From assembly GCA_023434025.1 (NCBI GenBank), contig JAEYTL010000045.1:1892-65891 (forward strand): a DNA stretch of 64,000 nt, given 5' to 3'. The notes beneath the pieces were generated by a model that saw only the letters and a program-made list of their open reading frames with translations, ran no database searches and was not told where the DNA came from. This DNA is from Bacteroidota bacterium. GTDB taxonomy: Bacteria > Bacteroidota > Bacteroidia > Flavobacteriales > Flavobacteriaceae. Below, piece after piece: positions 8,085 to 52,335 of the stretch. Position numbers and translations under genes: made by a program. Position 1 is the stretch's first letter. Each line of letters begins with the position of its first letter.

Positions 8085-8145
8085 GAAAAGGGTTGACTAA
8101 AGAACCTGTACATTCCCGGCTATAAACCTTCTTTGACAAATAGTT

Positions 8146-8472: not shown

Positions 8473-8541
8473 GTTGATAATTTTTATAATTTGTAAGTTA
8501 CAAATGTAGTATATTGCATAGTTTTGATTAACTATTTTTTT

Positions 8542-32302: not shown

Positions 32303-32403
32303 TTTCACTGTTTTTAGTGGTTAAAATATCACCTTTTTTCATTCTCTTTTAAAATTGATTTGCCGTTAATCGGTAATATAAGTTACTCATCTATAAGGGT
32401 ATG

Positions 32404-32421
32404 CATTTCATCGATGAAATG
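32404..32421. promoter_or_regulatory. 18-bp perfect palindrome CATTTCATCGATGAAATG (candidate operator upstream of the EPS operon)
   Basis: Perfectly self-complementary, 265 nt upstream of the ATG at 32686. The half-site recurs three times at 44432-44497. Confidence 0.5.
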
Positions 32422-32685
32422 AGTGTTTTCAACAGATTTCAAAGGATTTATTTTGTGCTGTTTAGATTTAACTCTACTTTTGAATCGTCTTTTAACCGTG
32501 TAAAGTTTTATTAATTATATGTTAATATCGTTTTATTAAGTTAAAAAACTTTTTAGAAGTCGTCCCCAAAAGCCGGCGTTCCAAAAAATACCACAAAACC
32601 ACCCTAAGATTGTTAAAGTGCACCAACTTGTCTGGTTCTGCATAGGCAGATTCATCGACGAACGGAATTTTATTATGTAAAAGTT

Positions 32686-34236
32686 ATGAGCAAAAAGCAC
32701 GACGTAATGTTAATTTTAGAAGGAACCTATCCTTTTAATGGCGGTGGAGTTTCTACTTGGGCACACATGCTTTGCAATGAAGTTAAAAATTCAAATTTTA
32801 CACTTTATTCCATCAATGCTGAGTTTGAATCTAAAACAAAATACAAGCTGAGTGATAATGTAAAAAACCTTATTCAGGTACCTTTATGGTCTCCTATGGA
32901 GCCCCAGGAGATGATTGATTACGGTAAAAAATATTATAAAATTATCTCTCTTAAAGAGAAAAATGACCTGGACAAAATTAACCAGGTTTTCATTCCTGTT
33001 TTTCAGGATTTACTGAGACATATTTTCTCTGCAAACAGAGATGTAAGGGCTTTTGATGAAACAATCCATAAAATGTGGCGTTATTTTCAAAAGCACGACT
33101 ACAAAAAAACAATGAAGAGCGAACCGGTTTGGCGTACATTCTGCTATATGGTTTCGGATCTGAATGCTGAACAGGAGAATGAGAAGGTGTCACTATTTGA
33201 CTTGACCTCCGGTATGCGTTGGATTTACCGATTTCTTATACCGCTTTCAGTTGATGTTCCGCGGGTTGATGTTTCTCATTTAACATTGTCCGGCTTTCCG
33301 GTAATTCCGGCTTTAGTATTGAAATACAAATACGGTACACCAATGATTGTAACGGAACATGGTGTTTTTATCCGTGAGCGTTTATTGGCAATCAATTCTT
33401 CTGAGTATTCTTTTTTCCTGAAAAAAATGTTGATTAAGTTTTCAGAATGTGTAACGGAACTGGTTTATTACAAAGCAGATAAAATATTGTCTGTGAACAA
33501 ATTCAACATTAAATGGGAAAAAATGTACGGAGCAGATCCGAACAAAATAGAGATCATTTACAATGGTATTGATCACAATGTATTTAAACCATTGCCAAAG
33601 CCGGAACATTTAAAAAATATTCCTACTGTTGTGGCGGCTGCCCGTATTTTTGATCTGAAAGATATTATCACGATGATAAAATCCTGTGCTGTGGCCAAAC
33701 GGCAGATACCTGCTATTCAGTATCTGGTCTATGGTGACAATAATGCCGTACCGGAATATACCGCTGCCTGTGAACGGTTAATCGATGAACTGGATTTGAG
33801 AGATAATTTCAAGTTAGCCGGCTACCATGAGAAACCCAGTGAACTTTTTTCAGAAGGTGATATTTCGATTTTAACCTCTATTTCGGAAGGATTTCCCTAT
33901 ACTGTTTTAGAATCAATGAGTTGCGGAATCCCGGTCGTAGCCACTGACGTTGGTGGTGTTACCGAGGCATTGGATGAATCATGCGGTTTTATCTGCAAAC
34001 CAAAAGACGCTGAAGAAATAGGAAATAGGGTAGTAGAGCTTCTTAATAACAAAGCGTTAAGAGAGCAAATGGGAATTAATGCCCGCAAAAAAGTAATAGA
34101 TAACTTTACGATTGGTAAATTTGTCAACGCTTATGAAGCTGTCTATGAAAGAATAGTAACCCGTGAAGTTAAAGAAGTACAAATGCCAATTTTAATCCCG
34201 TCTTTAAATGAAGTAGAATCTGTAAAAGCCTCATAA
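32686..34236 (+). CDS. PelF-like GT4 glycosyltransferase with an N-terminal DUF3492-type domain
   Basis: 516 aa. N-terminus ILEGTYPFNGGGVSTWAHML (DUF3492/PelF-type). GT4 catalytic core with an E-x7-E region: TSISEGFPYTVLESMSCGIPVVATDVGG. Confidence 0.8.
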   Translation: MSKKHDVMLILEGTYPFNGGGVSTWAHMLCNEVKNSNFTLYSINAEFESKTKYKLSDNVKNLIQVPLWSPMEPQEMIDYGKKYYKIISLKEKNDLDKINQVFIPVFQDLLRHIFSANRDVRAFDETIHKMWRYFQKHDYKKTMKSEPVWRTFCYMVSDLNAEQENEKVSLFDLTSGMRWIYRFLIPLSVDVPRVDVSHLTLSGFPVIPALVLKYKYGTPMIVTEHGVFIRERLLAINSSEYSFFLKKMLIKFSECVTELVYYKADKILSVNKFNIKWEKMYGADPNKIEIIYNGIDHNVFKPLPKPEHLKNIPTVVAAARIFDLKDIITMIKSCAVAKRQIPAIQYLVYGDNNAVPEYTAACERLIDELDLRDNFKLAGYHEKPSELFSEGDISILTSISEGFPYTVLESMSCGIPVVATDVGGVTEALDESCGFICKPKDAEEIGNRVVELLNNKALREQMGINARKKVIDNFTIGKFVNAYEAVYERIVTREVKEVQMPILIPSLNEVESVKAS

Positions 34237-34309
34237 AACCCCTCCCAAATTTACATCTGAATCTCAAACCTAACCAAAATAGAATATATATGTGTTCTAC
34301 TAATGCAAA

Positions 34310-35923
34310 ATGGAAAAGCATAGTGAAAATATAAAAATATTAATTGATAATGTAAAAGATAAAATAGGTAAGCCGGTCAGCAGCAGGGTTGTTGCCGCTA
34401 CTATCGAATCTTTTGGCATCAGGGATATTGATACGGAAGCCGATTACGGTGTTTCAGATATTCAGGACTTGGCTAATTATATTTACCGGCAACTCACGAC
34501 CTCTCTGGAGCATAAAGAGAGTTTGAATGCCAGGGAGCGTGAATATATTGAAACTAATCCGAAAACGATTCAGTTGTCGGATTACATGGCTGTCAAAGCT
34601 AAAATCTTTGCCCAATATTATCCGTTGGGAATTTTTCACTTACTTCCGGTTTTTCTTCAAATTGCGGCAATTGTTGTTTTTGGTTATTCGTTATGGACAC
34701 ACGTTCACTTTAACCACTTACAATCCACAGCCGTTGTTTTGGGGGTAATAATTGGTATTGTCTCTACCGGTGGATTTGTACAGGTTATTGGTCGTCAGGC
34801 TACTTTTTACTGGAATTACCACGATTATTCCATGACCAAAAAAACCATTGATTATTTATTAAAGTTGGGAATTAAGACACTTTTCACTGTTTTTGCAGTT
34901 ATTCTGTTTATTAATTTCTTTATTCATATTTACCCTTACAAAGTATTATTCATTGTTTTTACCTATGCCTTTCTGATTGGTGTACTTTTACTGGTTTTAG
35001 CACCATTGCATACTATCAGACAACGATGGATGATTACCATTTCGGTTATTTTAGGAACGCTGGTTACGGTGTTGCTAAACAAATTTTCTTCGTTACTAAT
35101 TTATTATACGCACTGGTTCGGAATCAGTATTGCTGTGATATCGGCTAAAACGTATTTGTATTTTTTCTTCCGTGGGCTTTTAAAGAAACATCCGCCTAAA
35201 GCAGATTTAAAAATTAAAACATCCGTTTTTATTTATCAGAATCACCGGTATTTTTTATACGGTGTTTGTATTTACCTGTTTATTTTTATCGACAGAATAC
35301 TGGCTTGGTCAACCACCAGTAAGGGACAGCTTCCTTTTCTGGTCTATTTTGAAAAAGATTATGAGTTGGGTATGGATATGGCTATTTTGGTTTTCTTACT
35401 GTTATCCGGTGTTTTAGAGTTCAGCATTGCTTCTTTTACACGCTTTCTGGACATTACGCAAAAATTAGTGCAGTTTGAAAACGCAAAGCTTTTTAACAAA
35501 GAGCTGTATAAATTATACTGGCAGAATATTCTTATTTTATTGGCTACTGCTACAGTTATTCTTGTCATTATCTATCAATTAATGTTTGCTCCATGGGGCT
35601 ACAAAGGCCAGTTTCATGAAGAACTGGCAACTTTGAGTGTAAAAGTAACTTATCTTGGAGGGCTGGGGTATTTTTTTCTGGCTTGGGGAATGCTTAATAC
35701 TTTATATTTGTTTACCTTGGGTCAAACAGAACAACCTTTGAAAGGAATCATTTATGCTATTGTGATTAACCTGACCATCGGGTTTGTTTTGAGCCGGTTT
35801 GTCAGTTTTGAATACAGTGTTGTGGGCATGTTGGCCGGAGCCTTGTTTTTTATGCTTTATACATTAAAACATATTTTCCGCTTTTTCAAAAAACTTGATT
35901 ATCACTATTATGCGTCGTTTTAA
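34310..35923 (+). CDS. polytopic membrane protein (about 12 TM) with an approximately 100-aa soluble N-terminal domain; candidate PelG-like exporter
   Basis: 537 aa. Hydrophobic helices run from about residue 100 to the end. It occupies the position immediately after the PelF-like gene, as pelG does in pel operons. The gene is confident; the PelG assignment rests on position and topology only. Confidence 0.55.
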   Translation: MEKHSENIKILIDNVKDKIGKPVSSRVVAATIESFGIRDIDTEADYGVSDIQDLANYIYRQLTTSLEHKESLNAREREYIETNPKTIQLSDYMAVKAKIFAQYYPLGIFHLLPVFLQIAAIVVFGYSLWTHVHFNHLQSTAVVLGVIIGIVSTGGFVQVIGRQATFYWNYHDYSMTKKTIDYLLKLGIKTLFTVFAVILFINFFIHIYPYKVLFIVFTYAFLIGVLLLVLAPLHTIRQRWMITISVILGTLVTVLLNKFSSLLIYYTHWFGISIAVISAKTYLYFFFRGLLKKHPPKADLKIKTSVFIYQNHRYFLYGVCIYLFIFIDRILAWSTTSKGQLPFLVYFEKDYELGMDMAILVFLLLSGVLEFSIASFTRFLDITQKLVQFENAKLFNKELYKLYWQNILILLATATVILVIIYQLMFAPWGYKGQFHEELATLSVKVTYLGGLGYFFLAWGMLNTLYLFTLGQTEQPLKGIIYAIVINLTIGFVLSRFVSFEYSVVGMLAGALFFMLYTLKHIFRFFKKLDYHYYASF

Positions 35924-36719
35924 TTTGTTTTTATGGCTTTTGCCGTCATTGTTAGCTACGCCTGTTTTCAGTAATACTGCAAATAAGAGTACTGTTTTGG
36001 TCTGTTACGGCAGACTGAACCCTGCTGCAATCAAAGGCTATAATTACGTTATTTTAGAAGAAAAAAACTTCAGGAAAGAAGAAATTCAGCAAATCAAGAA
36101 ACAGAATAAGAACGTTCTGGCCTACATCAGCTTAGGCGAAGTAAACAGTAATGCCAGACATTACAAGTTGTTAAAAAACAGGACATTAGGAAAAAACAAC
36201 AATTGGGACAGCCATTATCTGAATTTAAAGGATAGCACTACGTCGGTTGTCCTGATGACCTTGATAAAAAAAGTATTAGAAAAAGGTTTTGATGGTTTGT
36301 TTTTAGATAATATCGATAATTATTCGTCTTTTGGGCCTCAGGCTGCTCAGCGTAATGAGCTGGTTGACCTGATACAAAGAATTAAAAAGCAATATCCCAA
36401 TCATGTATTGGTTCAAAATGCCGGTTTAGAGTTGATTCCGGATACTAAAAATTATATCGAATCGGTTATGTTTGAATCGGTTGCAACAGATTATAGTTTT
36501 AAAGACAACACTTATAAGCTTCGGGAAAGTAATGATTTTAACGAACGGTTAAAGCGTATCAAAGCAGTTAATGACCAATATAAAATTCCCGTTCTGCTGA
36601 TTGAATATGCCAACAGTAAACAGCTTTTTGAGCACATCGTGAAACGGTTATCTGCTACCCGTTTTGAGTATTTTATAGGAAAAATAGATTTACAGTCTGT
36701 TCCCGATTTTACCAGATAA
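35910..36719 (+). CDS. secreted GH114/TM1410-like TIM-barrel glycosidase (endo-alpha-1,4-polygalactosaminidase / PelA-hydrolase / Ega3-like)
   Basis: Signal peptide MRRFNLFLWLLPSLLATPVFS. YISLGEV and GFDGLFLDNIDNY motifs are characteristic of the GH114/TM1410 family. The start at 35910 overlaps the upstream stop by 14 nt. Confidence 0.68.
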   Translation: MRRFNLFLWLLPSLLATPVFSNTANKSTVLVCYGRLNPAAIKGYNYVILEEKNFRKEEIQQIKKQNKNVLAYISLGEVNSNARHYKLLKNRTLGKNNNWDSHYLNLKDSTTSVVLMTLIKKVLEKGFDGLFLDNIDNYSSFGPQAAQRNELVDLIQRIKKQYPNHVLVQNAGLELIPDTKNYIESVMFESVATDYSFKDNTYKLRESNDFNERLKRIKAVNDQYKIPVLLIEYANSKQLFEHIVKRLSATRFEYFIGKIDLQSVPDFTR

Positions 36720-36721
36720 CC

Positions 36722-38692
36722 ATGATACTTTCCAGCTCCATATTAGTAGGTTTTATACGGCTCGTTTTGCTGCTGATGTTCTTGTATTATTGCAACAACA
36801 AGTTGGTCAAACGGGAGTATAGTCATAACCTGTTGCAATTTATTGTAAATGAATGGTTTAAGTACGGTAGTTTATCGTTGGTTGTTGTTTTTGTACTCAT
36901 TCAGTTCAGTGCTTACAGCCTCATCAACTATGTGCTTATTATGTCTTTTATCATAGTGGTAGATGTGGTGGGGATTAAAAACTTTAAAAACCCTGTCCGT
37001 TATTTTAAAGATACCGCAAAGTCACGCTTTTTTGAATTCCTGAAAAACAGTGAAAACAGAAAACCTGTTCGGGAACTTCTTCAGATGGAAAGACCTAAAA
37101 AGATAAAAGATGATCGTGTATTTATTTTTTATGCCGTATTGATTTTAATTATTATGGCCTTTGTTGGACGGTATTATTTTTATATTTATGATACATACCT
37201 GCTTTCAGATTTATGGGTGGCAAACCTGAATAAACTCATACTTTTTGATGAGAATACTTGGTTTGATGGTACTGTTTCGGTTGAAGGAGAGCTGGCTGTC
37301 AGCAACTTATATTCCAAATTAGTGGATGTTAGCCCGGAAGTAGGTTTGCAAAGTTTAGCAATTTTAGAAGATATCATACTGAGCCTGGTTGTTTTCTGGA
37401 CAATACGCAAGATTACTCCCTCCAGGGTTCTGGCTCCCATGATCGCTTTTCTTACCTATGTTTTTCTATACACCTTTTCACCTGTTGAAATTCATTACCT
37501 ATTGCAGAATGAACCTGTTTTGATGGGACTGACATTTGCAATACCTTGTATGGTCTATACCCTTAAACCGGATGCCATAAACTTTAAAAAGACCAATTAT
37601 TTCATCAGTTTAACCATTTGCTTTTTTGCCATTGGTTTAATCGATTTGTTTACCTTATTAATTCTGATGCCGCCGTTTTTCATCATCGCATTGGTGTTTG
37701 TAAACAAACATTATCTCTCATTCAAATGGCTTGCTCTTTCAGCCTATGTTATTGGAACAGGTAGTGTCTTGGCGATGTATTATATGATGTGTGATTATTA
37801 TCAGAATGATTTTTTAATCTTTCTGCAATCGAGTTTAATTTCGGTGACATCTTTTACCTATATGCCTAATTTGATTATACCGTTTGATGAATTGATTACG
37901 TATTACCAGTATGGGTCACTGTTCAGTATTATCATTTTGCCTTTTTTAATTTGGTATAAAAAAGAACCATGGAAACCTTCTTTGGTCTTTATGTTGTATT
38001 TTAATCTATTGGTAACCTTGAGTTTTATGCATGTGGAATGGATTGATACAGATTTGCTTCGTTTGGCACTGTCTGTTTTAATTCCGGTTTGTTTCGGAAT
38101 AACAGTAGCGGTTTTGCTGAGATTGCTGCAGCCGGCCTACAGGAAAGTACTTCAGTTTAAAATACCGATTGCCGTAGTGGTTTCATTGCTCGTCTTTGGC
38201 GGAATTTTATATTCACAAAAGGAACCGCTGAGCAATGTTAAAACCTCAGACAAAACCCCGCGGATGGTGTTGGATGCCTATGATGAAATTTTACACGAAT
38301 ATTTTCCATACAGTTATGCCGTGGTCAATGACAATATTGCTCAAACCATGAGTATAAATAAACATTTCTTTATCAATTATGAAGATTTTTTATTCAGCTA
38401 CCTGGAAAGTGATTCTATTTATCACCATAACAAGAAGAAGCCGAGGTTTTTTATTGAAAATCCGCAGTATGTAATCCCTAAGAGTGTTTTGGTGTTTGTG
38501 TACCATGACAATTCCGAAAAAGAAAATTATTTTGCCGATCAGAATCAGTTAGAACCGTTGCTGAAGGAGCATATCCAAACGTTGGAAAAAAGGGGGAGAA
38601 AGGTTTCGCTGTATTATGAAAGCCCCTTTGTAAACGTATATGAAATTGAAAACGAACCCAAATCAAGTAAGATTGATGACCTAATCTATTAA
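36722..38692 (+). CDS. large polytopic membrane protein with an approximately 150-aa C-terminal soluble domain, family unknown
   Basis: 656 aa, more than 12 hydrophobic segments, translationally coupled on both sides (2-nt gaps). No motif recognised. Confidence 0.75.
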   Translation: MILSSSILVGFIRLVLLLMFLYYCNNKLVKREYSHNLLQFIVNEWFKYGSLSLVVVFVLIQFSAYSLINYVLIMSFIIVVDVVGIKNFKNPVRYFKDTAKSRFFEFLKNSENRKPVRELLQMERPKKIKDDRVFIFYAVLILIIMAFVGRYYFYIYDTYLLSDLWVANLNKLILFDENTWFDGTVSVEGELAVSNLYSKLVDVSPEVGLQSLAILEDIILSLVVFWTIRKITPSRVLAPMIAFLTYVFLYTFSPVEIHYLLQNEPVLMGLTFAIPCMVYTLKPDAINFKKTNYFISLTICFFAIGLIDLFTLLILMPPFFIIALVFVNKHYLSFKWLALSAYVIGTGSVLAMYYMMCDYYQNDFLIFLQSSLISVTSFTYMPNLIIPFDELITYYQYGSLFSIIILPFLIWYKKEPWKPSLVFMLYFNLLVTLSFMHVEWIDTDLLRLALSVLIPVCFGITVAVLLRLLQPAYRKVLQFKIPIAVVVSLLVFGGILYSQKEPLSNVKTSDKTPRMVLDAYDEILHEYFPYSYAVVNDNIAQTMSINKHFFINYEDFLFSYLESDSIYHHNKKKPRFFIENPQYVIPKSVLVFVYHDNSEKENYFADQNQLEPLLKEHIQTLEKRGRKVSLYYESPFVNVYEIENEPKSSKIDDLIY

Positions 38693-38694
38693 GT

Positions 38695-41600
38695 ATGAAA
38701 ACCCGTGCTACCCTAAATCGATTAGCCATATGCAGCCTGATGGCCTTTGTGTTGATTTTTTCAAGCTGTGCCGACTTTGATGCGATAATAAACCCTGATA
38801 ATATTGATTTATTTTCAAAAGATCAGGCCGGAAAAAATGCATTATTAAAACACTACTCGGATACTGATTTAAATCTTCCGCCTTTGGTAGAATACATTGT
38901 AGATTTTGAAAATCCGATGAGTGTTAAGTACAGTAACCACCTCAAAAAGGTGTGTAATTATACCAAGATACCATTTAAGAACATCAACATCAAAGCATGG
39001 AATGCCAATCTGGAAATAGCTCCGTCCACCCGAGTCCTTTGTGTGCTGGAAACGAAGAAGCTAAATGATGCTTCTGTGGCAAAGCTTTTGAAATTTGTTT
39101 CAGACGGCGGTACACTTTACCTGCCGTATGCCTGTGAAGACAAGCGTTTTGGTTTTATGATCGGGATGAAAACAAATTCAGATTATGTAACCGATGTTAC
39201 TTCTGTGGGAATCCGTTTTAAGGAAAATTTTATTCCGACCCTGGCCGGAACTTCAACCCGGAAATCAATCATTCATTTTGGAATGAGCGGTGAAAATTTT
39301 GATATGACAAAGATTAAAGTTTATGCCACTTCCATTAATAATACGTCTTATCCATCTATTTTAGAGTGTCGGACAGGAAAAGGGAGGGTGATTAACCTGA
39401 ACTCGACGTTTGAACTGGAAAAAATGGACAGAGGTATACTGTTTTCAGGCATGATGATGGGATTAGAGGGAATCCCTTATCCGATAGCCAATACCAGTAC
39501 TGTTTTTTTAGACGATTTTCCTTCTCCGCTTTATGATACAAAAATGGAGCCTATTAAATCCGAAATGAACCTTTCTATCTCTGATTTTGTAAAAAATGTA
39601 TGGTGGCCCGATATGAAGGATTTGGCCAAAAAATACCAGATCAGTTATACGGCTGTTCCGGCTTTTGACTACAATGCCAAGACAGATCCGCCGTTTCTTT
39701 TCAGTCAATGGGATGCCAAAAAAATTTCAAGTGGCGGTAAGGTAGAACCCATCAGCAGTTGGTTGATGCGGGATTGTATTAAAAACGGGCACGAGCTGGG
39801 ATTTCATGGTTATAACCACGTTTCTTTGGTAAAAAGAGACTGGAAGAAGCCTGAATTTATTGTGACGGCACTCGAAGGCGTTCAGAAAAAATGGAAAGTG
39901 AGTAATTTTGGTAATTTACCGGTTTCCTATGTACCTCCGTCAAATTATATCGATCAGATGGGATTGAAAAGGCTTAAAGAAGGGTTGCCCTCTATTAGTT
40001 TTATGTGCAGCTTGTATTTGGGAGAAACCTATGATGGCGGAAACAGGGAATTTGATTTTGATCCCTATCATCACGGCATGTTTGATTATCCACGGATTTC
40101 AAGCGGATTTGAAATAGATGATGATTCAAAATACAACATTCAATCGATGTATCTGTACACCGGTATCTGGAATCATTTTGTGCACCCGGATGATGTATAC
40201 CAGATTCCGAGTCCGTTTAACAAAAGTGCCGGTGATTTCGACCTTCGGAATGCAAAAGGATTGGGCTGGCGTAAAACAAAAGGGAAGTCCGGAGGCTTAT
40301 TGGCAGAACTGGATAAATATTTTAAAGAATTTACCACGGCTTTTCCGCAATCAAGGTTTTTAAATGCCGGAGAAGGAGGGTTTATCGCCTTAGACTGGAG
40401 AGCGTCAAAATTCAACCATAAAACAAATGACGGAAAATATATTGTAGAAGAACTGAATCCTGATAATTCAATGTCCAACAGCCAGTACTGGTTTCTTTAC
40501 GGATCAGCTGAAAATGCAGAAAATATTGAATACCAGTTAAAATCAATTGCCGTAATTTATTCAAAGACAAGCTATTTAAACGGATTTTTATACTCTGTTT
40601 ACACCAATGAACCCGTTATTAAAATTAAAGATTACCGCGAATACAGAAACAAAGAGCTGGATTTTATTTTCAGTAAAGTACAAAATGATTACTACACTTA
40701 TCTAGTGAAAGTTAAAGAATTTGAACAAGGGGAGGAGAGTAGTGAGAATTATGAAGAGCAGATCCGGTTGGAAAAAGCGGCCTTGAAACAGCGTATGCTT
40801 TCCGAAGCTGTAATTGATTATCCTACCTGGAACAAATATGCCGAATACATGTCATGGGAAAGCAAAGAAAATGAGGTCTGGACCATGCTTGAAAAGCATT
40901 GTGCCAAATACCCGACCAAACATAATGTGATGTATGCCCAGGAATTAGACAAAATAATCGGTTATCCGAATGATCTCGCCATGGAAAAGTGGATGAGTGC
41001 CCAATTATTGGTTAACCCGAGAGATAAAGATTTGTTAAACAGCTATGTGGCGAATTTTAATACCCCGGAGAACAACGAAAAAATCAAACAGGCATTAATT
41101 GCACTTTTGGGTGTTGACACCGGTAAGCAAAGTATGTTTAACTATCTTCAGCACCTGTTATGGTATGAACCTCAAAATGCATTGACAGAACTGGAAAAGA
41201 TAGAGCCGTCTGATGATTACAGGGAATTGGCAACCAACATTACGTGGCTTTATGCCAACGAAAAAAATTATCAGAAAGCGTATGACTGGTCATTTTACAG
41301 CAACGAAATTGATATAGCCAGTAAAATGGAATGGCTTTTTCAGTTGAAGCAATATGATAACCTGATCGGGGAATACAATTCGTATATTGAAAAAAATCCT
41401 GACGATTATAAAACAAAGGCTTTGATGGCTAATTATTACCACGATATGGGTAAATTTAAAGAAGCATGGATTTTGGCCGGCGAATTGCCGGAATCAAAAG
41501 AAAAAGAATCACTCAGAAAGGCCCTTAATGCAGATGTAATTTACCAGGATGATTTTCTGCAACAGGATTTACTGGCTAATTATCCGGAATTGTTTTTAGA

Positions 41601-42618
41601 CAATGTCCGAATGGCTGTTACCAAAACCAACCGCTTAAAATACGGTAATTTTATTGAATCTGAGAACGAGATTCAAACTAACAGAGACAGGACAGCCTCT
41701 TTAACAACTCGGCATTCGTATAATTTTTATGATAAGAAAAAGAACCTGCACCGTTTTGCGGCCACCTACTCAGAATTTTTCCCGCTCATCCGGTCAACGG
41801 TTGATACCATCGTGATTGACCTGCGTATGCAAAACAGGGAGGAGAATGAAGCATTAATCATCTCGGATGACAATAAATTCACAAGAGTATATGGGGTTGA
41901 ATACCAATATAAAAACCCGTTTTCATTTGAAAAGTTTCAGTATTGGTCAAGAATCAGGTTTGAAATGGACAATTATCAGCAGGCTTATTTTCAATTTGGA
42001 GCCGGTGTAAACAAAACATTCAGAAAAAATTTCAGTTCCGCTCAGGTAAATGTATTTCCGGTGCAAACAGCACCCGGTCATGCCAAAGAAATTTACCACG
42101 TTCAATCTGTTTTGTACCAGAGTGTTTATTGGATGAAAAAAATCAATATTACTTTGGGGATTGAATCTAATTATTACACGAAAAGCAAGTATAATACCGA
42201 TTTTATTACGGATAATAACATTGATATTTCTGCTACTTTACGGGTTGGCTGGGATGATGGCGAAGAGAAGAAATCCAGGTTCATACCGTTTCTGGAATCG
42301 TCTGTTCAGACAGGTTCTGCCGACTTGAGTGACGGTTACCCGTATTGGATGCTGGATAAACGTTTATTTGGCGGGGGCGGACTAAGCTATAGCTACGGTC
42401 TGGAAGCCAATGATTTTAAAGCAAAATTAGAAGCAGCCTATTTTTTTGATGATTATGCCGATCAGTTTCAGCGTTTTTCCGGTACCGTTTCTTACCGGTT
42501 GTTCAATTATACTGCTTTAGTTGCTGCATTTGAAATTTTCAATCAGGATAAATTCTACTCAAACACAGTTCAGTTCGGGTTAAAGCACAGTTTTAAAGAA
42601 AAAAACAGAGTTAAATAA
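38695..42618 (+). CDS. 1307-aa lipoprotein fusing a DUF2194/CE4-CE18-like polysaccharide deacetylase region, TPR-like repeats and a C-terminal beta-barrel-like region
   Basis: Lipobox IFSSC. Deacetylase-like metal triad candidates FLDDFPSP and GHELGFHGYNH. Middle helical repeats (for example EYNSYIEKNPDDYKTKALMANYYHDMGKFKEAW). The last approximately 330 aa have alternating hydrophobic and aromatic beta-strand patterns (VSYRLFNYTALVAAFEIF, TVQFGLKHSF). Confidence 0.72.
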   Translation: MKTRATLNRLAICSLMAFVLIFSSCADFDAIINPDNIDLFSKDQAGKNALLKHYSDTDLNLPPLVEYIVDFENPMSVKYSNHLKKVCNYTKIPFKNINIKAWNANLEIAPSTRVLCVLETKKLNDASVAKLLKFVSDGGTLYLPYACEDKRFGFMIGMKTNSDYVTDVTSVGIRFKENFIPTLAGTSTRKSIIHFGMSGENFDMTKIKVYATSINNTSYPSILECRTGKGRVINLNSTFELEKMDRGILFSGMMMGLEGIPYPIANTSTVFLDDFPSPLYDTKMEPIKSEMNLSISDFVKNVWWPDMKDLAKKYQISYTAVPAFDYNAKTDPPFLFSQWDAKKISSGGKVEPISSWLMRDCIKNGHELGFHGYNHVSLVKRDWKKPEFIVTALEGVQKKWKVSNFGNLPVSYVPPSNYIDQMGLKRLKEGLPSISFMCSLYLGETYDGGNREFDFDPYHHGMFDYPRISSGFEIDDDSKYNIQSMYLYTGIWNHFVHPDDVYQIPSPFNKSAGDFDLRNAKGLGWRKTKGKSGGLLAELDKYFKEFTTAFPQSRFLNAGEGGFIALDWRASKFNHKTNDGKYIVEELNPDNSMSNSQYWFLYGSAENAENIEYQLKSIAVIYSKTSYLNGFLYSVYTNEPVIKIKDYREYRNKELDFIFSKVQNDYYTYLVKVKEFEQGEESSENYEEQIRLEKAALKQRMLSEAVIDYPTWNKYAEYMSWESKENEVWTMLEKHCAKYPTKHNVMYAQELDKIIGYPNDLAMEKWMSAQLLVNPRDKDLLNSYVANFNTPENNEKIKQALIALLGVDTGKQSMFNYLQHLLWYEPQNALTELEKIEPSDDYRELATNITWLYANEKNYQKAYDWSFYSNEIDIASKMEWLFQLKQYDNLIGEYNSYIEKNPDDYKTKALMANYYHDMGKFKEAWILAGELPESKEKESLRKALNADVIYQDDFLQQDLLANYPELFLDNVRMAVTKTNRLKYGNFIESENEIQTNRDRTASLTTRHSYNFYDKKKNLHRFAATYSEFFPLIRSTVDTIVIDLRMQNREENEALIISDDNKFTRVYGVEYQYKNPFSFEKFQYWSRIRFEMDNYQQAYFQFGAGVNKTFRKNFSSAQVNVFPVQTAPGHAKEIYHVQSVLYQSVYWMKKINITLGIESNYYTKSKYNTDFITDNNIDISATLRVGWDDGEEKKSRFIPFLESSVQTGSADLSDGYPYWMLDKRLFGGGGLSYSYGLEANDFKAKLEAAYFFDDYADQFQRFSGTVSYRLFNYTALVAAFEIFNQDKFYSNTVQFGLKHSFKEKNRVK

Positions 42619-42619
42619 A

Positions 42620-42656
42620 AAATGATGAAGTACTCATGATATGTACTTCATCATTT
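42620..42656. terminator. bidirectional rho-independent terminator
   Basis: AAATGATGAAGTAC-TCATGATAT-GTACTTCATCATTT followed by ATTTTTTTT. It lies between convergent genes that end at 42618 and 42680. Confidence 0.75.
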
Positions 42657-42679
42657 ATTTTTTTAGATGATGCTTAAGA

Positions 42680-44326
42680 TTAATGTTTTACAATAAATCT
42701 TCTGGAATCATGTATTTGCCCGTTATCAAACTGAATAAAATAAACACCGTTTGTCAGGGCCTGTGTATCAAAAATTACTTTATTGCCGTTTTGGTTCATA
42801 CTTAGTTTGATCTGCTGACCCAATGAGTTGTAAACGGCAAAGTTGTATGCAGAGGCATCATCCATTTCAACCATCAGTTCATGATCTGCCGGAACCGGAT
42901 GAAGCACAACTTTTAACCGGTTGGCATCTGCTATACCGAGTGTTTCGCTGATAATCAGTTTATGGTTCAGGCGGTTGTATCCTGTTGAAGATTCCCACAC
43001 GTTGTTATTGGCAAAACGAATAGCATATTCCGGTTTGTTGGCCAGCGATTCATAGATATCCGGTAAATGCAGATACATGTCATACGTTCCGGGAATGATT
43101 CCTTCCGGCAGGCTGAGGTTTTCGGTAACCGTAAATTCATCCTGCCAATTTCTAGGGTCAGATTCCATCATTATCGAGAATACTTGGTTTGTGGCCGTAT
43201 TTTTTAAAACGATATAGGCATTTCGTTCGTTAAACGGAGCGGCATAACCGACATTGTTTATATTTAACGTTACGGATAATTGACTGTTCAGGGGAATACT
43301 TTGCGGAAGAACGGCACTGGTAAGCTGAAAACGGTAACCTAAATTCTTCTGAATTTCCTGATAGCAATCGCCGGTCTGCCAACCGTTAATAACACTCGGA
43401 TGATAATCTAAATTAAGATAGGACCAATGAAATTTAGCCATTTCAAATTGAGCTGTTGCACAGTTTGTTCTCGATTCAAAAACCGCACAGGTCTCGCCAC
43501 CCATAGGTACATAGCGGGTTTCCTGATCAAGGTAAGGATATTCGGTGTTTACGTTGGTGTAGGTACCCACATCGGTATTGCTCGATAAAAAGCAATCGTT
43601 ATGGTGGCCAATTCTGGCCAGGCTGGTGTTGGTATACGCCTGACTTGGCGGCAGAGGAGCGGCAGTATTATACATTTGCTGCTTCATTTTCGGATAACGT
43701 ATCTGCAGAGATCTTGAACTCGGCAATGCGTTCAGAATAGCATCTGTAATATCTTTCCGATGGGCATAATTTGCAGAAGTCAGGTTGGTCTGGTTGTAGC
43801 CCCAGCCTCCAAATTCCGACTGGCCGGTGTAATACCATTCTCCCCAAGCTCCTATAAAGCCGGCCTGCATTACGGCAATAACATCCGCATTGGCAATTAA
43901 CAAAGGTTTGATCTGATTAATGTGTTCAAGCATTCTTGTTTTGGTTGCATCTAAAACAACCCCGCTTCCATAGTCATCAGAATAAGCAAACCGGATAACA
44001 GCTTTTAAACCGGCATTACGGATCCTGTTAAAATCAGTCTGCATATTATTCAGATAAGATTGCGAAATGGAAGTATTAATAAAATCTTTTAAATAAAAAT
44101 ACCTGAAAATCAATGTAATGTTCTGATTGACACGGTAGTTTGTTAATGATGACTGGTTTAAAAGATTGTAACTACTCGAAGAGGATGATTCGGTATCACT
44201 GTACTTATAAAATCCGCGTTCAGGATTTGGAAAGTTAGCACTCGATGCGGTGTAAGTCACTGTAGTCGTCTGTGCACCCCCGTATAGAAACAGAAGAGCA
44301 CCCAAAAAGGTAAATACTTTTCTCAT
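42680..44326 (-). CDS. T9SS-secreted DUF4874/DUF4832-like putative glycoside hydrolase
   Basis: 548 aa with a signal peptide. TIM-barrel-like core with GFIGAWGEWYYTG and HHNDCF. The C-terminal approximately 80 aa resemble a T9SS sorting domain (HPVPADHELMVEM ... NGVYFIQFDNG ... RRFIVKH). Confidence 0.72.
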   Translation of the reverse strand: MRKVFTFLGALLFLYGGAQTTTVTYTASSANFPNPERGFYKYSDTESSSSSSYNLLNQSSLTNYRVNQNITLIFRYFYLKDFINTSISQSYLNNMQTDFNRIRNAGLKAVIRFAYSDDYGSGVVLDATKTRMLEHINQIKPLLIANADVIAVMQAGFIGAWGEWYYTGQSEFGGWGYNQTNLTSANYAHRKDITDAILNALPSSRSLQIRYPKMKQQMYNTAAPLPPSQAYTNTSLARIGHHNDCFLSSNTDVGTYTNVNTEYPYLDQETRYVPMGGETCAVFESRTNCATAQFEMAKFHWSYLNLDYHPSVINGWQTGDCYQEIQKNLGYRFQLTSAVLPQSIPLNSQLSVTLNINNVGYAAPFNERNAYIVLKNTATNQVFSIMMESDPRNWQDEFTVTENLSLPEGIIPGTYDMYLHLPDIYESLANKPEYAIRFANNNVWESSTGYNRLNHKLIISETLGIADANRLKVVLHPVPADHELMVEMDDASAYNFAVYNSLGQQIKLSMNQNGNKVIFDTQALTNGVYFIQFDNGQIHDSRRFIVKH

Positions 44327-44431: not shown

Positions 44432-44497
44432 GATGAAATGTGTTTTTTTATCGATGAAATGCGTTAAAAAAATACATAAATAATCGATAAAATGCAT
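44432..44497. promoter_or_regulatory. three phased direct copies of the GATGAAATG half-site (candidate operator array)
   Basis: GATGAAATG at 44432-44440, ATCGATGAAATGC at 44450-44462, ATCGATAAAATGCAT at 44483-44497. Spacing is 21 and 33 nt. The array lies 106-171 nt upstream of the start at 44326 (minus strand). Confidence 0.45.
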
Positions 44498-49012: not shown

Positions 49013-50932
49013 ATGAAAAACTCAATTGCGGAACGAATAGCAGATTTTTTGAAGAATTTCCCCCCTTTTTTCAGTCTTACTTATGCTGAATTGGTTCATA
49101 TAGCCAGTGAAGTTCAGGTTGTTCATGTAGAAAAAAACCATATTCTATTTAAAATAGGCGATAAAACACACCCTTTCTTTTATGTTGTTAAAGAAGGTGC
49201 AATCGGACTTTCCGTAACCTCTGATGCCGAAGAGACCCTGATTGATAAATGTGATGAAGGTGATATTCTCGGCCTTCGCCCCTTTTTTGCCAAAGACAAT
49301 TACCTGATGACAGCCAAAGCACGGGAAGAAAGTCTTTTGTATGCCATACCGATCGATGTTTTTAAGCCTTATGTGAGCCAAAATGCCGAAGTATTGAGTT
49401 TTTTACTGGAAAGTTTTGCCTCCAACACCCGTAATCCTTACGACAAGGAAAATAAAGGCAAATTAGTGTCTGAAAACGTAATTTATACCGAGCAAAATGC
49501 CGAAATACAGTATTTTCAACCCATAGCCTACACAAAAAGTCCGGTAACAGCTTCCCGGAAAGATGTTGTAAAGTTCGTGGCCCAAACCATGACGCAAAGT
49601 AAAATTGGCAGCGTAATTATCCAGGATAACAACTTACCGGTGGGTATTGTTACCGACAAAGACCTGCGTTCAAAAATAGCCACGGGTCTTTTTCCTATTG
49701 ATGTTACGGTCGATCAAATCATGTCGGCTCCCGTAATTACAGTAGCCGAAAATATTTCAATTGCCGAAACCCAGATGATGATGCTTAAACACAATGTCGG
49801 TCACCTTTGTGTAACGGCCGACGGAACCAATAAATCTAAAATCATGGGGATTATTTCGGAGCACGATGTGGTGGCTGCCCAGGCCAATAACCCCGGAGTG
49901 TTGCTCAAACAGACCAAAAGAGCTACCCGTTCCAAAGAATTAAAAACGGTTCGTGAAAAATTGAATGACCTGATTCAGAATTCATTAGATAAAAACATAC
50001 CGATTCAGCATATCGCTAATATTGTTGGCGAAATCAATATTGCCATCACTAAACGGGCGGTTGAACTGGCCATTGAAAAAATGGATGAGCAGCCCCCTGC
50101 CCGATTTGCCTGGATGAACATCGGCAGCCAGGGACGCAAAGAGCAGTTGCTGATGACCGATCAGGACAATGCCCTGGTTTTTGAGGATGTGGAAGAAGAA
50201 CGTTATGATGATGTGAAAAAATATTTTCTGGAACTGGCCGAAAAAGTAACCAAAACACTCAATAAGATTGGCTACGAATATTGTCCGGCCGAAATGATGG
50301 CCAGCAATCCGATGTGGTGTAAATCGGTAACAGACTGGAACAAGCAATATAATGCATGGATTAACAAGCCCGGTGAAAAAGGAATTTTAATGTGCTCCAT
50401 CTTCTTTGATTATGATTTTATTTATGGCGATGAAAAGCTGATCGATCTGATGACGGAAAACATTTTTCACCATGTAAATAACAACCAGTTATTTTTGGCT
50501 TATCTGGGCACAGATGCTTTAAAGAATCCTCCTCCATTAGGTTTCTTCCGCCAGTTTTTAGTAGAAGATGACGGTGAACACAAAGATACGTTTGACATTA
50601 AAAGCCGTGCGTTAATGCCTCTGATTGATGCTGCCCGTTTGTTGGTTTTAAGCCAGGGCATCAGAGGGATTAATAATACCTACCAGCGTTATAAAAAAAT
50701 GGCTGAATCAGAACCGCAGAATGCTGATTTATTTGAAAGTTGTGCAGAAGCCTTCTCAATCCTTTCTTTCTTTAGAACAGAAGAAGGATTGCTAAACAAT
50801 AACAATGGCAGGTATCTGAATTTGAATGAGTTGTCAAAATCAGATAAAGTAAAGCTTAAAAATGCATTCCAGCCGATCCGGGATGTACAGGACGCTATTA
50901 AAAATCGTTTTCAACTCACTTATTTTACCTAA
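49013..50932 (+). CDS. signal-transduction protein with cNMP-binding, tandem CBS and DUF294 nucleotidyltransferase domains
   Basis: 639 aa. N-terminal cNMP-like beta-roll (FKIGDKTHPFFYVVKEGAI), CBS pair (GSVIIQDNNLPVGIVTDKDL, GHLCVT ... IMGIISEHDV), and NTase motif NIGSQGRKEQLLMTDQDNALVF. Confidence 0.85.
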   Translation: MKNSIAERIADFLKNFPPFFSLTYAELVHIASEVQVVHVEKNHILFKIGDKTHPFFYVVKEGAIGLSVTSDAEETLIDKCDEGDILGLRPFFAKDNYLMTAKAREESLLYAIPIDVFKPYVSQNAEVLSFLLESFASNTRNPYDKENKGKLVSENVIYTEQNAEIQYFQPIAYTKSPVTASRKDVVKFVAQTMTQSKIGSVIIQDNNLPVGIVTDKDLRSKIATGLFPIDVTVDQIMSAPVITVAENISIAETQMMMLKHNVGHLCVTADGTNKSKIMGIISEHDVVAAQANNPGVLLKQTKRATRSKELKTVREKLNDLIQNSLDKNIPIQHIANIVGEINIAITKRAVELAIEKMDEQPPARFAWMNIGSQGRKEQLLMTDQDNALVFEDVEEERYDDVKKYFLELAEKVTKTLNKIGYEYCPAEMMASNPMWCKSVTDWNKQYNAWINKPGEKGILMCSIFFDYDFIYGDEKLIDLMTENIFHHVNNNQLFLAYLGTDALKNPPPLGFFRQFLVEDDGEHKDTFDIKSRALMPLIDAARLLVLSQGIRGINNTYQRYKKMAESEPQNADLFESCAEAFSILSFFRTEEGLLNNNNGRYLNLNELSKSDKVKLKNAFQPIRDVQDAIKNRFQLTYFT

Positions 50933-50938
50933 AAAATT

Positions 50939-51553
50939 ATGGTGTTTGATTGGTTTAAAAAAGTCAGTAAAGATTATCCTAAATTCTGGGAAAACTACCT
51001 CGCATACTTTGAGCAGGAACCGGATGAATCAAAGCCTAAGCGTTATGTGGTCTTTGATTGCGAAACAACCGGATTGGATTTCCGCAAGGATGTTATTCTG
51101 TCAATTGGAGCTGTCGCTGTGATAGACAGTGCCGTGATTGTAAATGATTCACTCGAACTTTTTTTACGACAAGATGTCTATAATGCGGAAACGGCATCCA
51201 TACACGGCATTTTAAAAGAAGGTAAAGAAGAAAAAATTGTTGAAGCCGAAGCAATTATCCGTTTTCTGGAATTTATCAAAGATGCAACCCTGATTGGTCA
51301 TCACGTAAATTTTGATATCGAAATGATTAACCAGGCTCTGAAGCGTTTAGAAGTTGGAAAGCTCAGGAACGACAGTATGGATACCGATGCCATGTATCAA
51401 AAATTCAGAAGGTTACAGGAAGATGAACATACCAGTCTGGATGAACTTTGCAAAATTTTAAAAATAGAAAAAAGCGACCGGCATACCGCATCGGGAGATG
51501 CTTTTATCACTGCTTTGATCTTTTTAAAATTAAAGAGACGGCTTTTGATTTAA
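50939..51553 (+). CDS. DEDDh 3'-5' exonuclease (DnaQ/epsilon-like)
   Basis: ExoI YVVFDCETTGLD, ExoII IGHHVNFDIEM, ExoIII HTASGDAFITA. Starts 6 nt after the upstream stop. Confidence 0.88.
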   Translation: MVFDWFKKVSKDYPKFWENYLAYFEQEPDESKPKRYVVFDCETTGLDFRKDVILSIGAVAVIDSAVIVNDSLELFLRQDVYNAETASIHGILKEGKEEKIVEAEAIIRFLEFIKDATLIGHHVNFDIEMINQALKRLEVGKLRNDSMDTDAMYQKFRRLQEDEHTSLDELCKILKIEKSDRHTASGDAFITALIFLKLKRRLLI

Positions 51554-51570
51554 ATATAATTTTTATACGT

Positions 51571-52335
51571 TTATTTCAAATAATTGGCTAACGGCAATCG
51601 TTGTTTTTGCAATTCGCCTGCAAACAACCGGCAGATTTCTGTAGCTCCCAATACAGATAAATGCGTATTGTCTGTAATTCCTTCGGGGAAATATGGGTGT
51701 TCTCCCGGTGCAAAATGCAGGTGCAGCTTTTTGGATTCCTCTACACCATAGTTAATTTCCATCTGTTCAGTAAGGTATTGCAGATCAATGAACAGAACGT
51801 TCATTTCCTGTGCTACTAAACGGGCTTGCAGCGTATAGTTTCCATGTGCATCCAGCAAAACACCTTCGGGGTTAAATTTTCTCCGGGCAATGGAAGAAAA
51901 CAAAACAGGAATGGCTCCCTTTGCTCTCGTTTCTTCAATATAGCGGATTAAATTATAACGATAGGCCGTCTGTGGGTTGGTATAACGGGCAGGATCCGTT
52001 TCTTTACCGTCGTTATGACCAAACTGAATGAAGACATAATTTCCGGGTTTCAGCAAATCCAATACCGGTTGCCAATGGTTCAGTTCTCTGAAACTTTTGG
52101 TGCTTCTGCCGTTCACGGCATGATTCCGGATGGTTACTTTATCATTAAAAAACTGCGGTAAAACCTGTCCCCATCCTCTTTCCGGATTTTCATCGGGATT
52201 CTTCTTGTCCGCCATCGTTGAGTCGCCAATCATGAAAATGGTTACCGGCGATTGAAAAGTTTCGCTGGTTTGGGCACTTTTGCATCCCAAAATAACGATG
52301 AACAGTGCTCCCACGATAATTTTATAAATTCTCAT
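51571..52335 (-). CDS. SGNH/GDSL hydrolase, rhamnogalacturonan acetylesterase (CE12-like) lipoprotein
   Basis: Block I IFMIGDSTMAD, block III QFGHNDG, block V DNTHLS. Lipobox ILGC. I chose the start at 52335 (MRIYKII); the tracked start at 52383 is possible. Confidence 0.82.
   Translation of the reverse strand: MRIYKIIVGALFIVILGCKSAQTSETFQSPVTIFMIGDSTMADKKNPDENPERGWGQVLPQFFNDKVTIRNHAVNGRSTKSFRELNHWQPVLDLLKPGNYVFIQFGHNDGKETDPARYTNPQTAYRYNLIRYIEETRAKGAIPVLFSSIARRKFNPEGVLLDAHGNYTLQARLVAQEMNVLFIDLQYLTEQMEINYGVEESKKLHLHFAPGEHPYFPEGITDNTHLSVLGATEICRLFAGELQKQRLPLANYLK

Follow-up and report, generated by a model that had tools for sequence, protein, structure and literature searches.

Few biofilm polysaccharides are as widespread as Pel, the described forms of which, to our knowledge, all depend on a cyclic di-GMP (c-di-GMP) module consisting of PelD and PelE. 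How a polymer of this kind could be made and exported by a pel-like gene set that has no such module within it is the question raised by a locus of a flavobacterial genome (Bacteroidota, Flavobacteriaceae; assembly GCA_023434025.1, contig JAEYTL010000045.1). A stretch of 64,000 nucleotides (contig positions 1,892 to 65,891, forward strand; hereafter the window) was analyzed, and its positions 32686–44326 were found to contain a five-gene operon and a convergent sixth gene. The six-gene cluster most likely makes, trims and exports a sticky cell-surface polymer of the Pel type. It is probably a synthase-dependent exopolysaccharide system of Flavobacterium, in which a 'Gram-positive' Pel toolkit would have been adapted to a two-membrane cell.

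Gene Organization and Conservation

Open reading frame (ORF) analysis recovered all six genes of the original prediction, with the same coordinates and lengths. These are g1 (32686–34236, plus strand, 516 aa), for a PelF-type cytoplasmic GT4 glycosyltransferase, the presumptive polymerase; g2 (34310–35923, plus strand, 537 aa), for a likely divergent PelG, an exporter of the multidrug/oligosaccharidyl-lipid/polysaccharide (MOP) superfamily; g3 (35895–36719, plus strand, 274 aa when read from TTG), for a putatively secreted, PelA-hydrolase-like TIM-barrel glycosidase (GH166/GH114 clan); g4 (36722–38692, plus strand, 656 aa), for a polytopic membrane protein with a predicted GT-C fold; g5 (38695–42618, plus strand, 1307 aa), for a lipoprotein in which a PelA_DA-type deacetylase appears to be fused to tetratricopeptide repeats (TPR) and a porin of the PelB/PgaA/BcsC type; and g6 (42680–44326, minus strand, 548 aa), for a protein with DUF4874 (TIM-barrel) and DUF4832 domains, predicted to be secreted by the type IX secretion system (T9SS). 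The intergenic gaps of 73, 2 and 2 nt (g1/g2, g3/g4 and g4/g5, respectively) were likewise recovered. At the g2/g3 junction, the predicted overlap of 14 nt fits an ATG at 35910, whereas the predicted length of 274 aa corresponds to the TTG at 35895, with an overlap of 29 nt. The ATG, which gives a protein of 269 aa opening with MRRFNLFLW, is more likely to be the true start, since a typical signal peptide opens there and the orthologue in a related locus (L001) is also 269 aa long. The spacing had been taken as a sign of translational coupling, a reasonable deduction at the three tight junctions, though not across the gap of 73 nt. The G+C content was even across the region, so there was no compositional sign of recent transfer.

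Relatives were collected by pattern and tblastn scanning with one genome per species, and 384 stretches encoding a g5 relative were obtained. The locus survey comprised the best 80 of these 384 stretches, almost all from Flavobacterium or unclassified Flavobacteriaceae, plus Aureibaculum flavum, and colinearity was counted in the 58 loci with long enough flanking DNA. The closest loci by g5 identity were those of Flavobacterium sp. UBA2787 (91%) and F. lacus (87%). Genes g1 to g5 were colinear and on one strand in all 58 loci, and g6 followed g5 convergently in 52, with contig ends explaining three of the six exceptions; chance falls far short of explaining this arrangement. Compared with the proteins of the window, median identities were 70% for PelF, 59% for g2, 52% for g6, 49% for g3, 47% for g5 and 41% for g4. 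The genes flanking the cluster vary between species, and the six genes thus form a conserved unit. In Flavobacterium genomes, PelF and sometimes PelG are already labelled by NCBI models. Clusters of the Flavobacterium type (L005, L029; protein P0231) were also seen on contigs labelled Variovorax paradoxus (76% to g5), Sphingobacterium thalpophilum (47%) and Burkholderiales (metagenome-assembled genomes, MAGs); the Variovorax paradoxus and Burkholderiales labels are probably binning errors in public MAGs.

The g5 Lipoprotein

The original prediction of a deacetylase within the 1307-aa protein was supported by a characterized homologue. The protein matched Pfam DUF2194 (E = 2.5e-65), and its N-terminal half matched PDB entry 9ZAU with an E value of 3.9e-38 (residues 62–502), or 1.2e-58 when the family profile was used (residues 39–509 covered). 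This entry is the Bacillus cereus deacetylase PelA_DA, comprising a CBM114 and a CE26 domain (JBC 2026, PMC13254593), which is a metal-dependent de-N-acetylase of alpha-1,4-N-acetylgalactosamine (GalNAc) oligosaccharides, is needed for Pel biosynthesis (PMC13254593) and was placed by the depositors in the separate family CE26. The corresponding CBM114-like and CE26 deacetylase domains of g5 lie at 38878–40209 (plus strand, residues ~62–505, aligned to PelA_DA over 62–502). Among 31 sequences, D273, D274, H371, H375, P414/P415, R467 and H497 were invariant and D500 was conserved in at least 90%, and these catalytic and metal-binding residues match D262, D263, HxxxH, P405, R458, H488 and D491 of the B. 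cereus enzyme. By sequence, B. cereus PelA_DA and the N-terminal half of g5 are orthologues, with all catalytic residues conserved in g5. A deacetylase of the fungal Agd3 type (CE18) had been suggested earlier; since Agd3 (6NWZ) gave no match to g5 in either the sequence or the profile search of the PDB at E values up to 1, this suggestion was replaced by CE26. The predicted lipoprotein character also held, the lipobox being present with a Cys25 that is invariant among the relatives.

The C-terminal half of g5 gave no match in Pfam or NCBIfam, and was therefore modelled by structure prediction, as was g4. In the AlphaFold 2 (AF2) model of residues 591–1307 (mean predicted local distance difference test (pLDDT) 86.8), a helical repeat domain was seen at 40750–41643 (plus strand, residues ~686–983), for which Foldseek returned BcsC with its TPR, PelBC and consensus TPR proteins. 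It is followed by a modelled 16-strand outer-membrane beta-barrel at 41650–42591 (plus strand, residues ~986–1299), the putative export pore, with Foldseek matches to BcsC (9B8A, 3e-11; 6TZK, 7e-9), PgaA (4Y25, TM-score of 0.71 on the target) and PelBC (9H80_M, 6e-6). The TPR and barrel assigned by the original prediction are thus both found in the model, with BcsC, PgaA and PelB as the best matches; the similarity to PelB is structural only, as no sequence-level match was found in the PDB sequence and profile searches. Taken together, the deacetylase homology and the modelled TPR-porin suggest that g5 is one lipoprotein joining a Pel deacetylase to a TPR-porin of the PelB/PgaA type. Full-length relatives of ~1300 aa are common in Flavobacterium.

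A different layout was observed in locus L083 (10431–14261), where three ORFs in a row, of 365, 440 and 481 aa, make up the g5 equivalent and correspond to g5 residues 82–370, 387–767 and 813–1231. This could be either a genuinely split deacetylase and porin or the result of frameshifts in a MAG.

The g1, g2 and g3 Proteins

The assignment of g1 as a GT4 glycosyltransferase with the DUF3492 domain of PelF was well supported, as the protein matched Pfam DUF3492 (9e-58, 196 bits) and Glycos_transf_1 (4e-30), as well as the NCBIfam PelF equivalog NF038011 with 173.3 bits against a cutoff of 100 and a full-length alignment. The E-x7-E core noted originally was seen as E401–E409. The g2 protein showed a much weaker match to Pfam PelG (PF16933), with an E value of 0.016 and 14.6 bits against a cutoff of 29 (residues 113–534 on model positions 34–452 of 452), and PDB sequence and profile searches gave no match. 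However, 16 of the 33 members of its family matched PF16933, the best with 1.5e-8, and relatives at 59–61% identity carry the NCBI or UniRef names PelG or EPS-E. About 11–12 hydrophobic segments were counted, preceded by a conserved additional N-terminal cytoplasmic segment of ~100 aa. Judged at the family level, g2 likely belongs to the PelG family.

The g3 protein had been described as GH114-like, carrying the sequence GFDGLFLDNIDNY. Both parts stood, with the sequence found and 80 bits obtained for Pfam GH114 (cutoff 27), but the nearest solved structures were the Pseudomonas aeruginosa PelA hydrolase domain (5TCB, 1e-15) and full-length PelA (9CGY, 9e-14) rather than the fungal galactosaminidase Ega3. 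TM1410 and Ega3 were matched with E values of 1e-3 to 6e-3 (Ega3, 6OJ1, 5e-3 across 94 residues). Residue E194 of g3 was aligned to the catalytic glutamate E218 of PelA, the residue mutated in 5TSY.

The Inner-Membrane Module and g4

No gene for PelC, PelD or PelE was detected in the 64-kb window, the cluster included, the Pfam scan of the 39 window ORFs returning no GGDEF, GAF or PelD_GGDEF domain, as the original prediction had held for the locus. The window neighbours of the cluster are housekeeping genes and, because the flanks vary between species, no conserved neighbour could supply the missing parts. Similarly, no UDP-GlcNAc 4-epimerase (PelX/GalE) was present in the cluster and no epimerase in the scanned window ORFs.

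The inner-membrane protein that the cluster does encode, g4, gave no match in Pfam, NCBIfam or the PDB sequence search. Its AF2 model had a pLDDT of 82.9 and a predicted TM-score (pTM) of 0.84, and the top 24 Foldseek matches in the PDB were all GT-C transferases, namely STT3/OST, DPY19, ArnT, ALG9/12, PglB and AftA/B/D, with E values of 6.5e-5 to 0.45 and TM-scores of 0.3–0.48. The protein models confidently as a multi-pass GT-C-fold protein with an extracytoplasmic C-terminal domain, so that the 656-aa polytopic membrane protein of the original prediction could be refined to a fold, and the different inner-membrane platform proposed there was borne out by this model and the absence of PelD/PelE from the window. 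From the pattern of helices and positive charges in the model and the sequence, the C-terminal alpha/beta domain would be periplasmic, and D157, D308, D442 and D444 would sit at the periplasmic loop ends.

The g4 family was found to comprise 57 clusters in a word-indexed search and 206 representatives at E values up to 1e-3 among 1.84 billion proteins. Distant relatives had no credible Pfam match, just marginal ones below the cutoff, and consequently no sequence bridge from g4 to a named GT-C family was obtained. Among the acidic residues that are candidates for catalysis, D157, E206 and D442 were invariant in 36 sequences of the Flavobacterium clade, and D308 and D444 were conserved in at least 90%. 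In distant members, D157 was replaced by Ala-Pro and the D442/D444 motif was lost, and the soluble C-terminal domain was the best-conserved part family-wide. Since the acidic residues of the clade are not kept in the wider family, catalysis by g4 is uncertain.

The genomic context was looked up for eight distant homologues (L001 and L082–L089), some of them 15–20% identical to g4. All eight adjoined a DUF3492-GT4 gene and a PelG-like gene, and usually also GH114 and DUF2194 genes, and no PelD or PelE was seen in the loci examined. Judged from the neighbouring genes, these contexts are apparently Bacteroidota-like and Firmicutes-like, and would thus belong to more than one phylum. The adjacency to PelF and PelG in all eight cases makes g4 look like a long-standing partner of these two proteins, marking a branch of Pel-like systems without PelD/E. 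We therefore propose that g4 is the inner-membrane partner of PelF and PelG, the genomic association being the strongest evidence.

Several of the distant loci carry other regulators (STAS, anti-sigma kinase, SpoIIE and GAF-HD proteins). In L087 (5060–5473) and L088 (5098–5520 and 11983–16768), a HATPase_c_2 anti-sigma kinase, STAS, a GAF-SpoIIE phosphatase, GAF-HD_5 and a response regulator were found, which suggests alternative post-translational control in those PelD-less lineages. L088 also encodes a product of 1036 aa with DUF3492 and GT1 domains (6841–9951), the length of which would allow a PelF–PelG fusion, and an additional shorter DUF3492 paralogue (~400 aa) recurs in L083, L086, L087, L088 and L089. 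The Firmicutes-like loci L082 (15148–18465) and L084 (14213–22079) have two tandem g4-like genes together with a small GT2, a CE4 deacetylase, an ATP-grasp enzyme and a MurJ/MatE flippase, and L082 additionally has DUF2304 and is flanked by spore-germination and spore-coat genes; these gene sets would fit a lipid-linked extracytoplasmic glycosylation route.

The g6 Protein

The convergent gene had been predicted to encode a T9SS-secreted DUF4874/DUF4832 protein, and all of these domains were found: DUF4874 (2.5e-46), DUF4832 (4.8e-65) and Por_Secre_tail (4.7e-9, 36.8 bits, cutoff 27) in Pfam, as well as the TIGR04183 type A sorting domain (37.2 bits, cutoff 23), with the C-terminal domain also matching PDB 8GLJ (2.5e-5). 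The N-terminal signal peptide and the C-terminal type A sorting domain together mark g6 as T9SS cargo, in agreement with the earlier idea that this system serves an accessory enzyme of the cluster. DUF4832 genes are Pel accessory genes in streptococcal and clostridial pel loci (PMC7112168), and in Streptococcus intermedius, SIR_1591 (TIM barrel and DUF4832) acts as a glycosidase and disperses aggregates that depend on Pel (PMC12345266). Judged from its homologous domain content, g6 is a probable second Pel-active hydrolase, sent by the T9SS to the cell surface or the medium.

Proposed Mechanism and Alternative Readings

The folds and families above were computed, and from them we infer the order of events and the product. 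In the favoured explanation, the cytoplasmic PelF (g1) would polymerize a hexosamine polymer, most likely of alpha-1,4-GalNAc, from a UDP-sugar, and the polymer would cross the inner membrane through the MOP-family PelG (g2) working with g4, which would substitute for PelD and PelE, the pair that serves as c-di-GMP receptor and scaffold. Partial de-N-acetylation would follow in the periplasm, carried out by the CBM114-CE26 module at the N terminus of the outer-membrane lipoprotein g5, and the TPR repeats of the same protein would pass the polymer to their own 16-strand barrel for export. Both g3, with its signal peptide, and the T9SS-secreted g6 may then trim or release the polymer. The TCGATRAAATG candidate operator shared by both transcription units, described below, would provide transcriptional control instead of the PelD-mediated activation by c-di-GMP. 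By analogy with the characterized systems, the product would have a cationic GalNAc/galactosamine chemistry and a role in biofilms.

Several points weigh against this explanation. The g2 protein alone falls below the Pfam and NCBIfam thresholds, so its assignment depends on its family. The role of g4 was deduced from fold and synteny, with modest Foldseek TM-scores and with acidic residues conserved only in the Flavobacterium clade. PelD/PelE may be encoded elsewhere in the genome, the search having covered 64 kb. The choice of GalNAc derives from the specificities of the homologues, and the cluster itself has no PelX/GalE epimerase. Finally, the operator reading of the shared motif comes with no assigned transcription factor.

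ArnT, enzymes of the YfhO/GtrC type and WaaL decorate polymers or ligate them to acceptors, and the likeliest alternative keeps the Pel-type system but makes g4 an active GT-C glycosyltransferase of this sort rather than a scaffold, decorating the polymer in the periplasm from an undecaprenyl-phosphate-sugar or ligating it to an acceptor. This is a real possibility, although it was judged the weaker one. It is favoured by the fact that the top 24 structural matches are all polyprenyl-phosphate-dependent GT-C transferases, by the conserved acidic residues of the clade at what would be periplasmic loops and by a C-terminal domain that would be periplasmic as in PglB, STT3 and ArnT, and the small GT2 (with DUF2304 in L082) and MurJ/MatE flippase of L082/L084 would complete an extracytoplasmic glycosylation system of three components. 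However, neither a GT2 that could act as undecaprenyl-phosphate-sugar synthase nor a GtrA-like flippase was found in the Flavobacterium cluster or the window, the D157 and D442/D444 positions are not kept in distant members, and conservation in the family peaks in the soluble C-terminal domain and not in the membrane active-site region. A further variant, considered improbable, starts from the recurrence of the PelF/PelG/GT-C triad in Flavobacterium and in PelD/PelE-less loci of other Bacteroidota-like and Firmicutes-like genomes, and from the other characterized polysaccharide exporters of the MOP family, Wzx and MurJ. The triad would mark a Pel-like branch that is not truly synthase-dependent, in which PelG flips a polyprenyl-linked oligosaccharide and the GT-C protein polymerizes or transfers it in the periplasm. 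If true, this would yield testable answers to two questions, the function of PelG and the passage of Pel across the inner membrane.

The chemistry rather than the machinery could also have been misjudged, the product being, for example, GlcNAc-based or a mixed hexosamine. The missing epimerase, the moderate PelF match of g1 (173 bits), the identities of at best 25–35% between g3, g5 and g6 and characterized enzymes, and the resemblance of a lipoprotein deacetylase with a TPR-porin to PgaB/PgaA of the poly-N-acetylglucosamine (PNAG) system all point this way, but such a product is unlikely, since the characterized relatives PelA_DA (CE26) and the PelA hydrolase domain both act on alpha-1,4-GalNAc, the DUF4832 class disperses Pel aggregates and the synthase is of the GT4 PelF type instead of the GT2 PgaC type. 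Readings outside the Pel type were rejected on gene content. A generic Wzx/Wzy-dependent capsule or O-antigen locus, with g2 as Wzx flippase, g4 as Wzy polymerase or WaaL-like ligase and g1 as an ordinary GT4, would agree with the MOP superfamily of g2 and with the GT-C-type fold, a broad class that includes Wzy and WaaL. It is nevertheless very improbable: the cluster lacks the marks of such loci (an initiating phosphoglycosyltransferase, Wzz/Wza/Wzc and nucleotide-sugar genes), in keeping with the original prediction, g1 scores above the PelF equivalog cutoff and has the PelF-specific DUF3492, a deacetylase, a PelA-like hydrolase and a TPR-porin are hallmarks of synthase-dependent systems, and the gene set is invariant across species whereas O-antigen and capsule loci are hypervariable. 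That the locus serves catabolism, with Pel or galactosaminogalactan of foreign origin as the food source, is hardly credible at all. Two glycosidases (g3 and g6), a deacetylase and the secretion of g6 by the T9SS, as for many degradative enzymes of Bacteroidota, would suit it, but a SusC/SusD pair, a sugar kinase and catabolic enzymes are all lacking, and a PelF polymerase, a PelG exporter and an outward TPR-porin fused to a deacetylase can only be understood as parts of a machinery that makes and exports a polymer.

Comparison with Known Systems

Among the described systems, the Pel-type cluster favoured here shares PelF and, judged at the family level, a likely PelG with the Bacillus cereus ATCC 10987 operon pelDEA_DAFG and its accessory pelA_H (Whitfield 2020, PMC7112168; Subramanian 2026, PMC13254593). 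The two also have in common a DUF2194-type deacetylase (CBM114 and CE26) with identical catalytic motifs and a PelA-like hydrolase encoded by a separate gene. The B. cereus deacetylase stands alone with an N-terminal transmembrane helix, and the PelA_DA paper covers only this membrane-anchored monoderm form (PMC13254593), whereas that of the cluster is lipid-anchored through Cys25 and fused to the TPR and 16-strand barrel; furthermore, the cluster has no PelD/PelE, has the GT-C-fold protein and belongs to a two-membrane host. With pelABCDEFG of P. aeruginosa, it shares PelF, a likely PelG, the PelA-hydrolase-like g3 (5TCB), a PelB-like TPR-porin (PelBC, 9H80) and a periplasmic deacetylation coupled to the TPR-porin. 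However, P. aeruginosa PelA combines a GH166 hydrolase and a CE4-like (CE21) deacetylase in one protein, whereas the cluster splits these functions between g3 and the CE26 domain of g5, and its deacetylase is fused to the porin protein instead of the hydrolase. The cluster has neither the PelC lipoprotein ring nor PelE or the c-di-GMP receptor PelD, and has the GT-C-fold protein and the T9SS hydrolase in addition. Because it lacks PelC/PelD/PelE, has no bifunctional PelA and carries a porin-fused deacetylase, the cluster falls outside both described types of pel operon. The parts list is undescribed as such, with PelF, a likely PelG, CE26, the separate hydrolase and the DUF4832 hydrolase common to the Gram-positive type.

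The gene for a TIM-barrel and DUF4832 glycosidase beside the pel genes is a likeness to S. intermedius and other streptococcal and clostridial pel loci (SIR_1591; PMC12345266), as is the apparent independence from c-di-GMP, streptococcal PelD being without a GGDEF receptor (PMC12345266). In contrast, the streptococcal enzyme has an N-terminal membrane anchor where g6 has a T9SS C-terminal sorting domain, and the CotH, polyphosphate polymerase and DUF4956 accessory genes of the streptococcal and clostridial loci are missing from the cluster. In Escherichia coli PgaABCD, which makes PNAG, an outer-membrane lipoprotein deacetylase (PgaB) similarly works with a TPR and 16-strand porin (PgaA). Deacetylase and porin are fused in the cluster only, and the two systems differ in the synthase (GT4 PelF and MOP PelG against GT2 PgaC/PgaD) and in the deacetylase family (CE26 against CE4). 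The likeness to fungal galactosaminogalactan noted in the original prediction was refined, the cluster being much closer to Gram-positive Pel (9ZAU, E = 4e-38, against Ega3, 5e-3). The Aspergillus fumigatus cluster (Gtb3, Agd3, Ega3, Sph3 and Uge3) has the same succession of synthase, partial de-N-acetylation and endo-alpha-1,4-galactosaminidase, and the three-domain layout of PelA_DA is reminiscent of Agd3 (PMC13254593). However, there was no Agd3 (CE18) sequence match, the Ega3 match was marginal (E 5e-3), Sph3 (GH135) and Uge3 had no counterpart in the cluster or the scanned window ORFs and the synthase is of a different type, so this likeness is an analogy or a distant relationship, not membership.

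No description of the cluster, of the deacetylase–porin fusion or of the GT-C partner was found in the searched literature, and no report of Flavobacterium matrix polysaccharide genes either. A 2024 paper stated that matrix genes had not been reported for Flavobacteriaceae, and the epsSMASH preprint gives Pel for 14 phyla, with Bacteroidota unmentioned in its text and the supplements examined and Flavobacterium clusters listed as uncharacterized. The cluster would represent a Pel-type machine that is compact and strongly conserved in Flavobacterium, a large genus of environmental and fish-associated bacteria. Its deacetylase, fused to the putative export pore, supports the idea that deacetylation and export are coupled, and the orphan GT-C-fold protein in the place of the c-di-GMP module offers a new handle on the inner-membrane step. 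In addition, the cluster connects the T9SS with matrix remodelling, and the newly founded CE26 and CBM114 families are extended into two-membrane bacteria.

Upstream Elements and Candidate Regulation

A perfect 18-bp palindrome, CATTTCATCGATGAAATG, formed by two inverted TCGATGAAATG half-sites, was found at 32404–32421, 265–282 nt upstream of g1, and is a candidate operator. Directly after it lies a conserved 21-nt element, GAGTGTTTTCAACAGATTTCA (32421–32441, plus strand), the exact copy of which is unique in the window and which is kept at ~80% upstream of pelF in loci whose proteins share only 45–70% identity; it is a candidate promoter or second binding site. Three (TC)GATRAAATG half-site repeats at 44432–44494, 106–168 nt upstream of the g6 start codon, form a candidate operator shared with the pelF promoter. 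Four copies of the full TCGATRAAATG motif were counted in the 64-kb window, two of them in the palindrome and two 125–168 nt upstream of g6, compared with 0.10 expected copies, and none of 100 shuffles reached four. An ATTTCRTCGA-type site precedes pelF in 48 of 59 related loci, and a matching site was found upstream of g6 in 48 of 61, at distances of 104–276 nt (47 of the 48 within 205 nt), compared with 8% of random 300-nt segments. The half-site shared before g1 and g6 places g6 and the operon in a single regulon and suggests that the cluster is under transcriptional control by a DNA-binding protein at the candidate operator, a motif that could be used for finding the regulator.

A leader peptide was also considered, as the upstream element overlaps a 37-codon ORF (MHFIDEMSVFNRFQ..., 32401–32514, plus strand) in the plus-strand frame of which the species differ by what look like synonymous changes. 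The operator was favoured over it because either strand of the palindrome specifies the same peptide, there is no conservation of the start codon and the half-site recurs as DNA repeats, also upstream of g6. A known riboswitch in the 383-nt pelF leader was not supported, since Rfam gave no credible RNA family, either for the whole window at the gathering threshold or for the leader at E values up to 10. A sigma-70 promoter and terminator scan returned fewer promoter-like sites than shuffled sequences; the consensus used is not that of Bacteroidota promoters. Between the convergent g5 and g6, a 14-bp hairpin flanked by A-runs and T-runs (42620–42656) had a minimum free energy of −18.2 kcal/mol (z = −4.4), with none of 200 shuffles equally stable, and is a probable bidirectional terminator. 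The sole other near-match to the 21-nt element in the window, GAGTGTTTWCAACAGATTTCA (14236–14256, three mismatches), lies inside a glycine-cleavage T-protein gene (13755–14837, minus strand) and is probably due to chance.

Neighbouring Genes and Other Occurrences

Both the window (49013–51553) and L001 (17036–19568), a relative with 48% identity, have a gene pair some kilobases beyond the cluster on its downstream side, first one for a cNMP-binding/CBS/DUF294 nucleotidyltransferase and then one for an RNase T-like exonuclease. The genes between the cluster and this pair differ between the two; the pair is probably a case of genus-level synteny and not of linkage. The GDSL lipase/acylhydrolase and pectinesterase genes at 51571–53422 of the window suggest an adjacent pectin-degradation cluster unrelated to the Pel-like locus. 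Outside the group surveyed here, Fusobacterium nucleatum, which also has two membranes, has DUF2194 and DUF3492 genes that respond strongly to co-culture with Porphyromonas gingivalis and to the CarSR regulon (PMC9848294, PMC12186487), and these may be another Pel-like system. In F. columnare, a DUF3492 gene lies beside gldM and gldN and was lost in the 4.7-kb deletion of a phage-resistant isolate (bioRxiv 10.1101/2020.10.02.323337).

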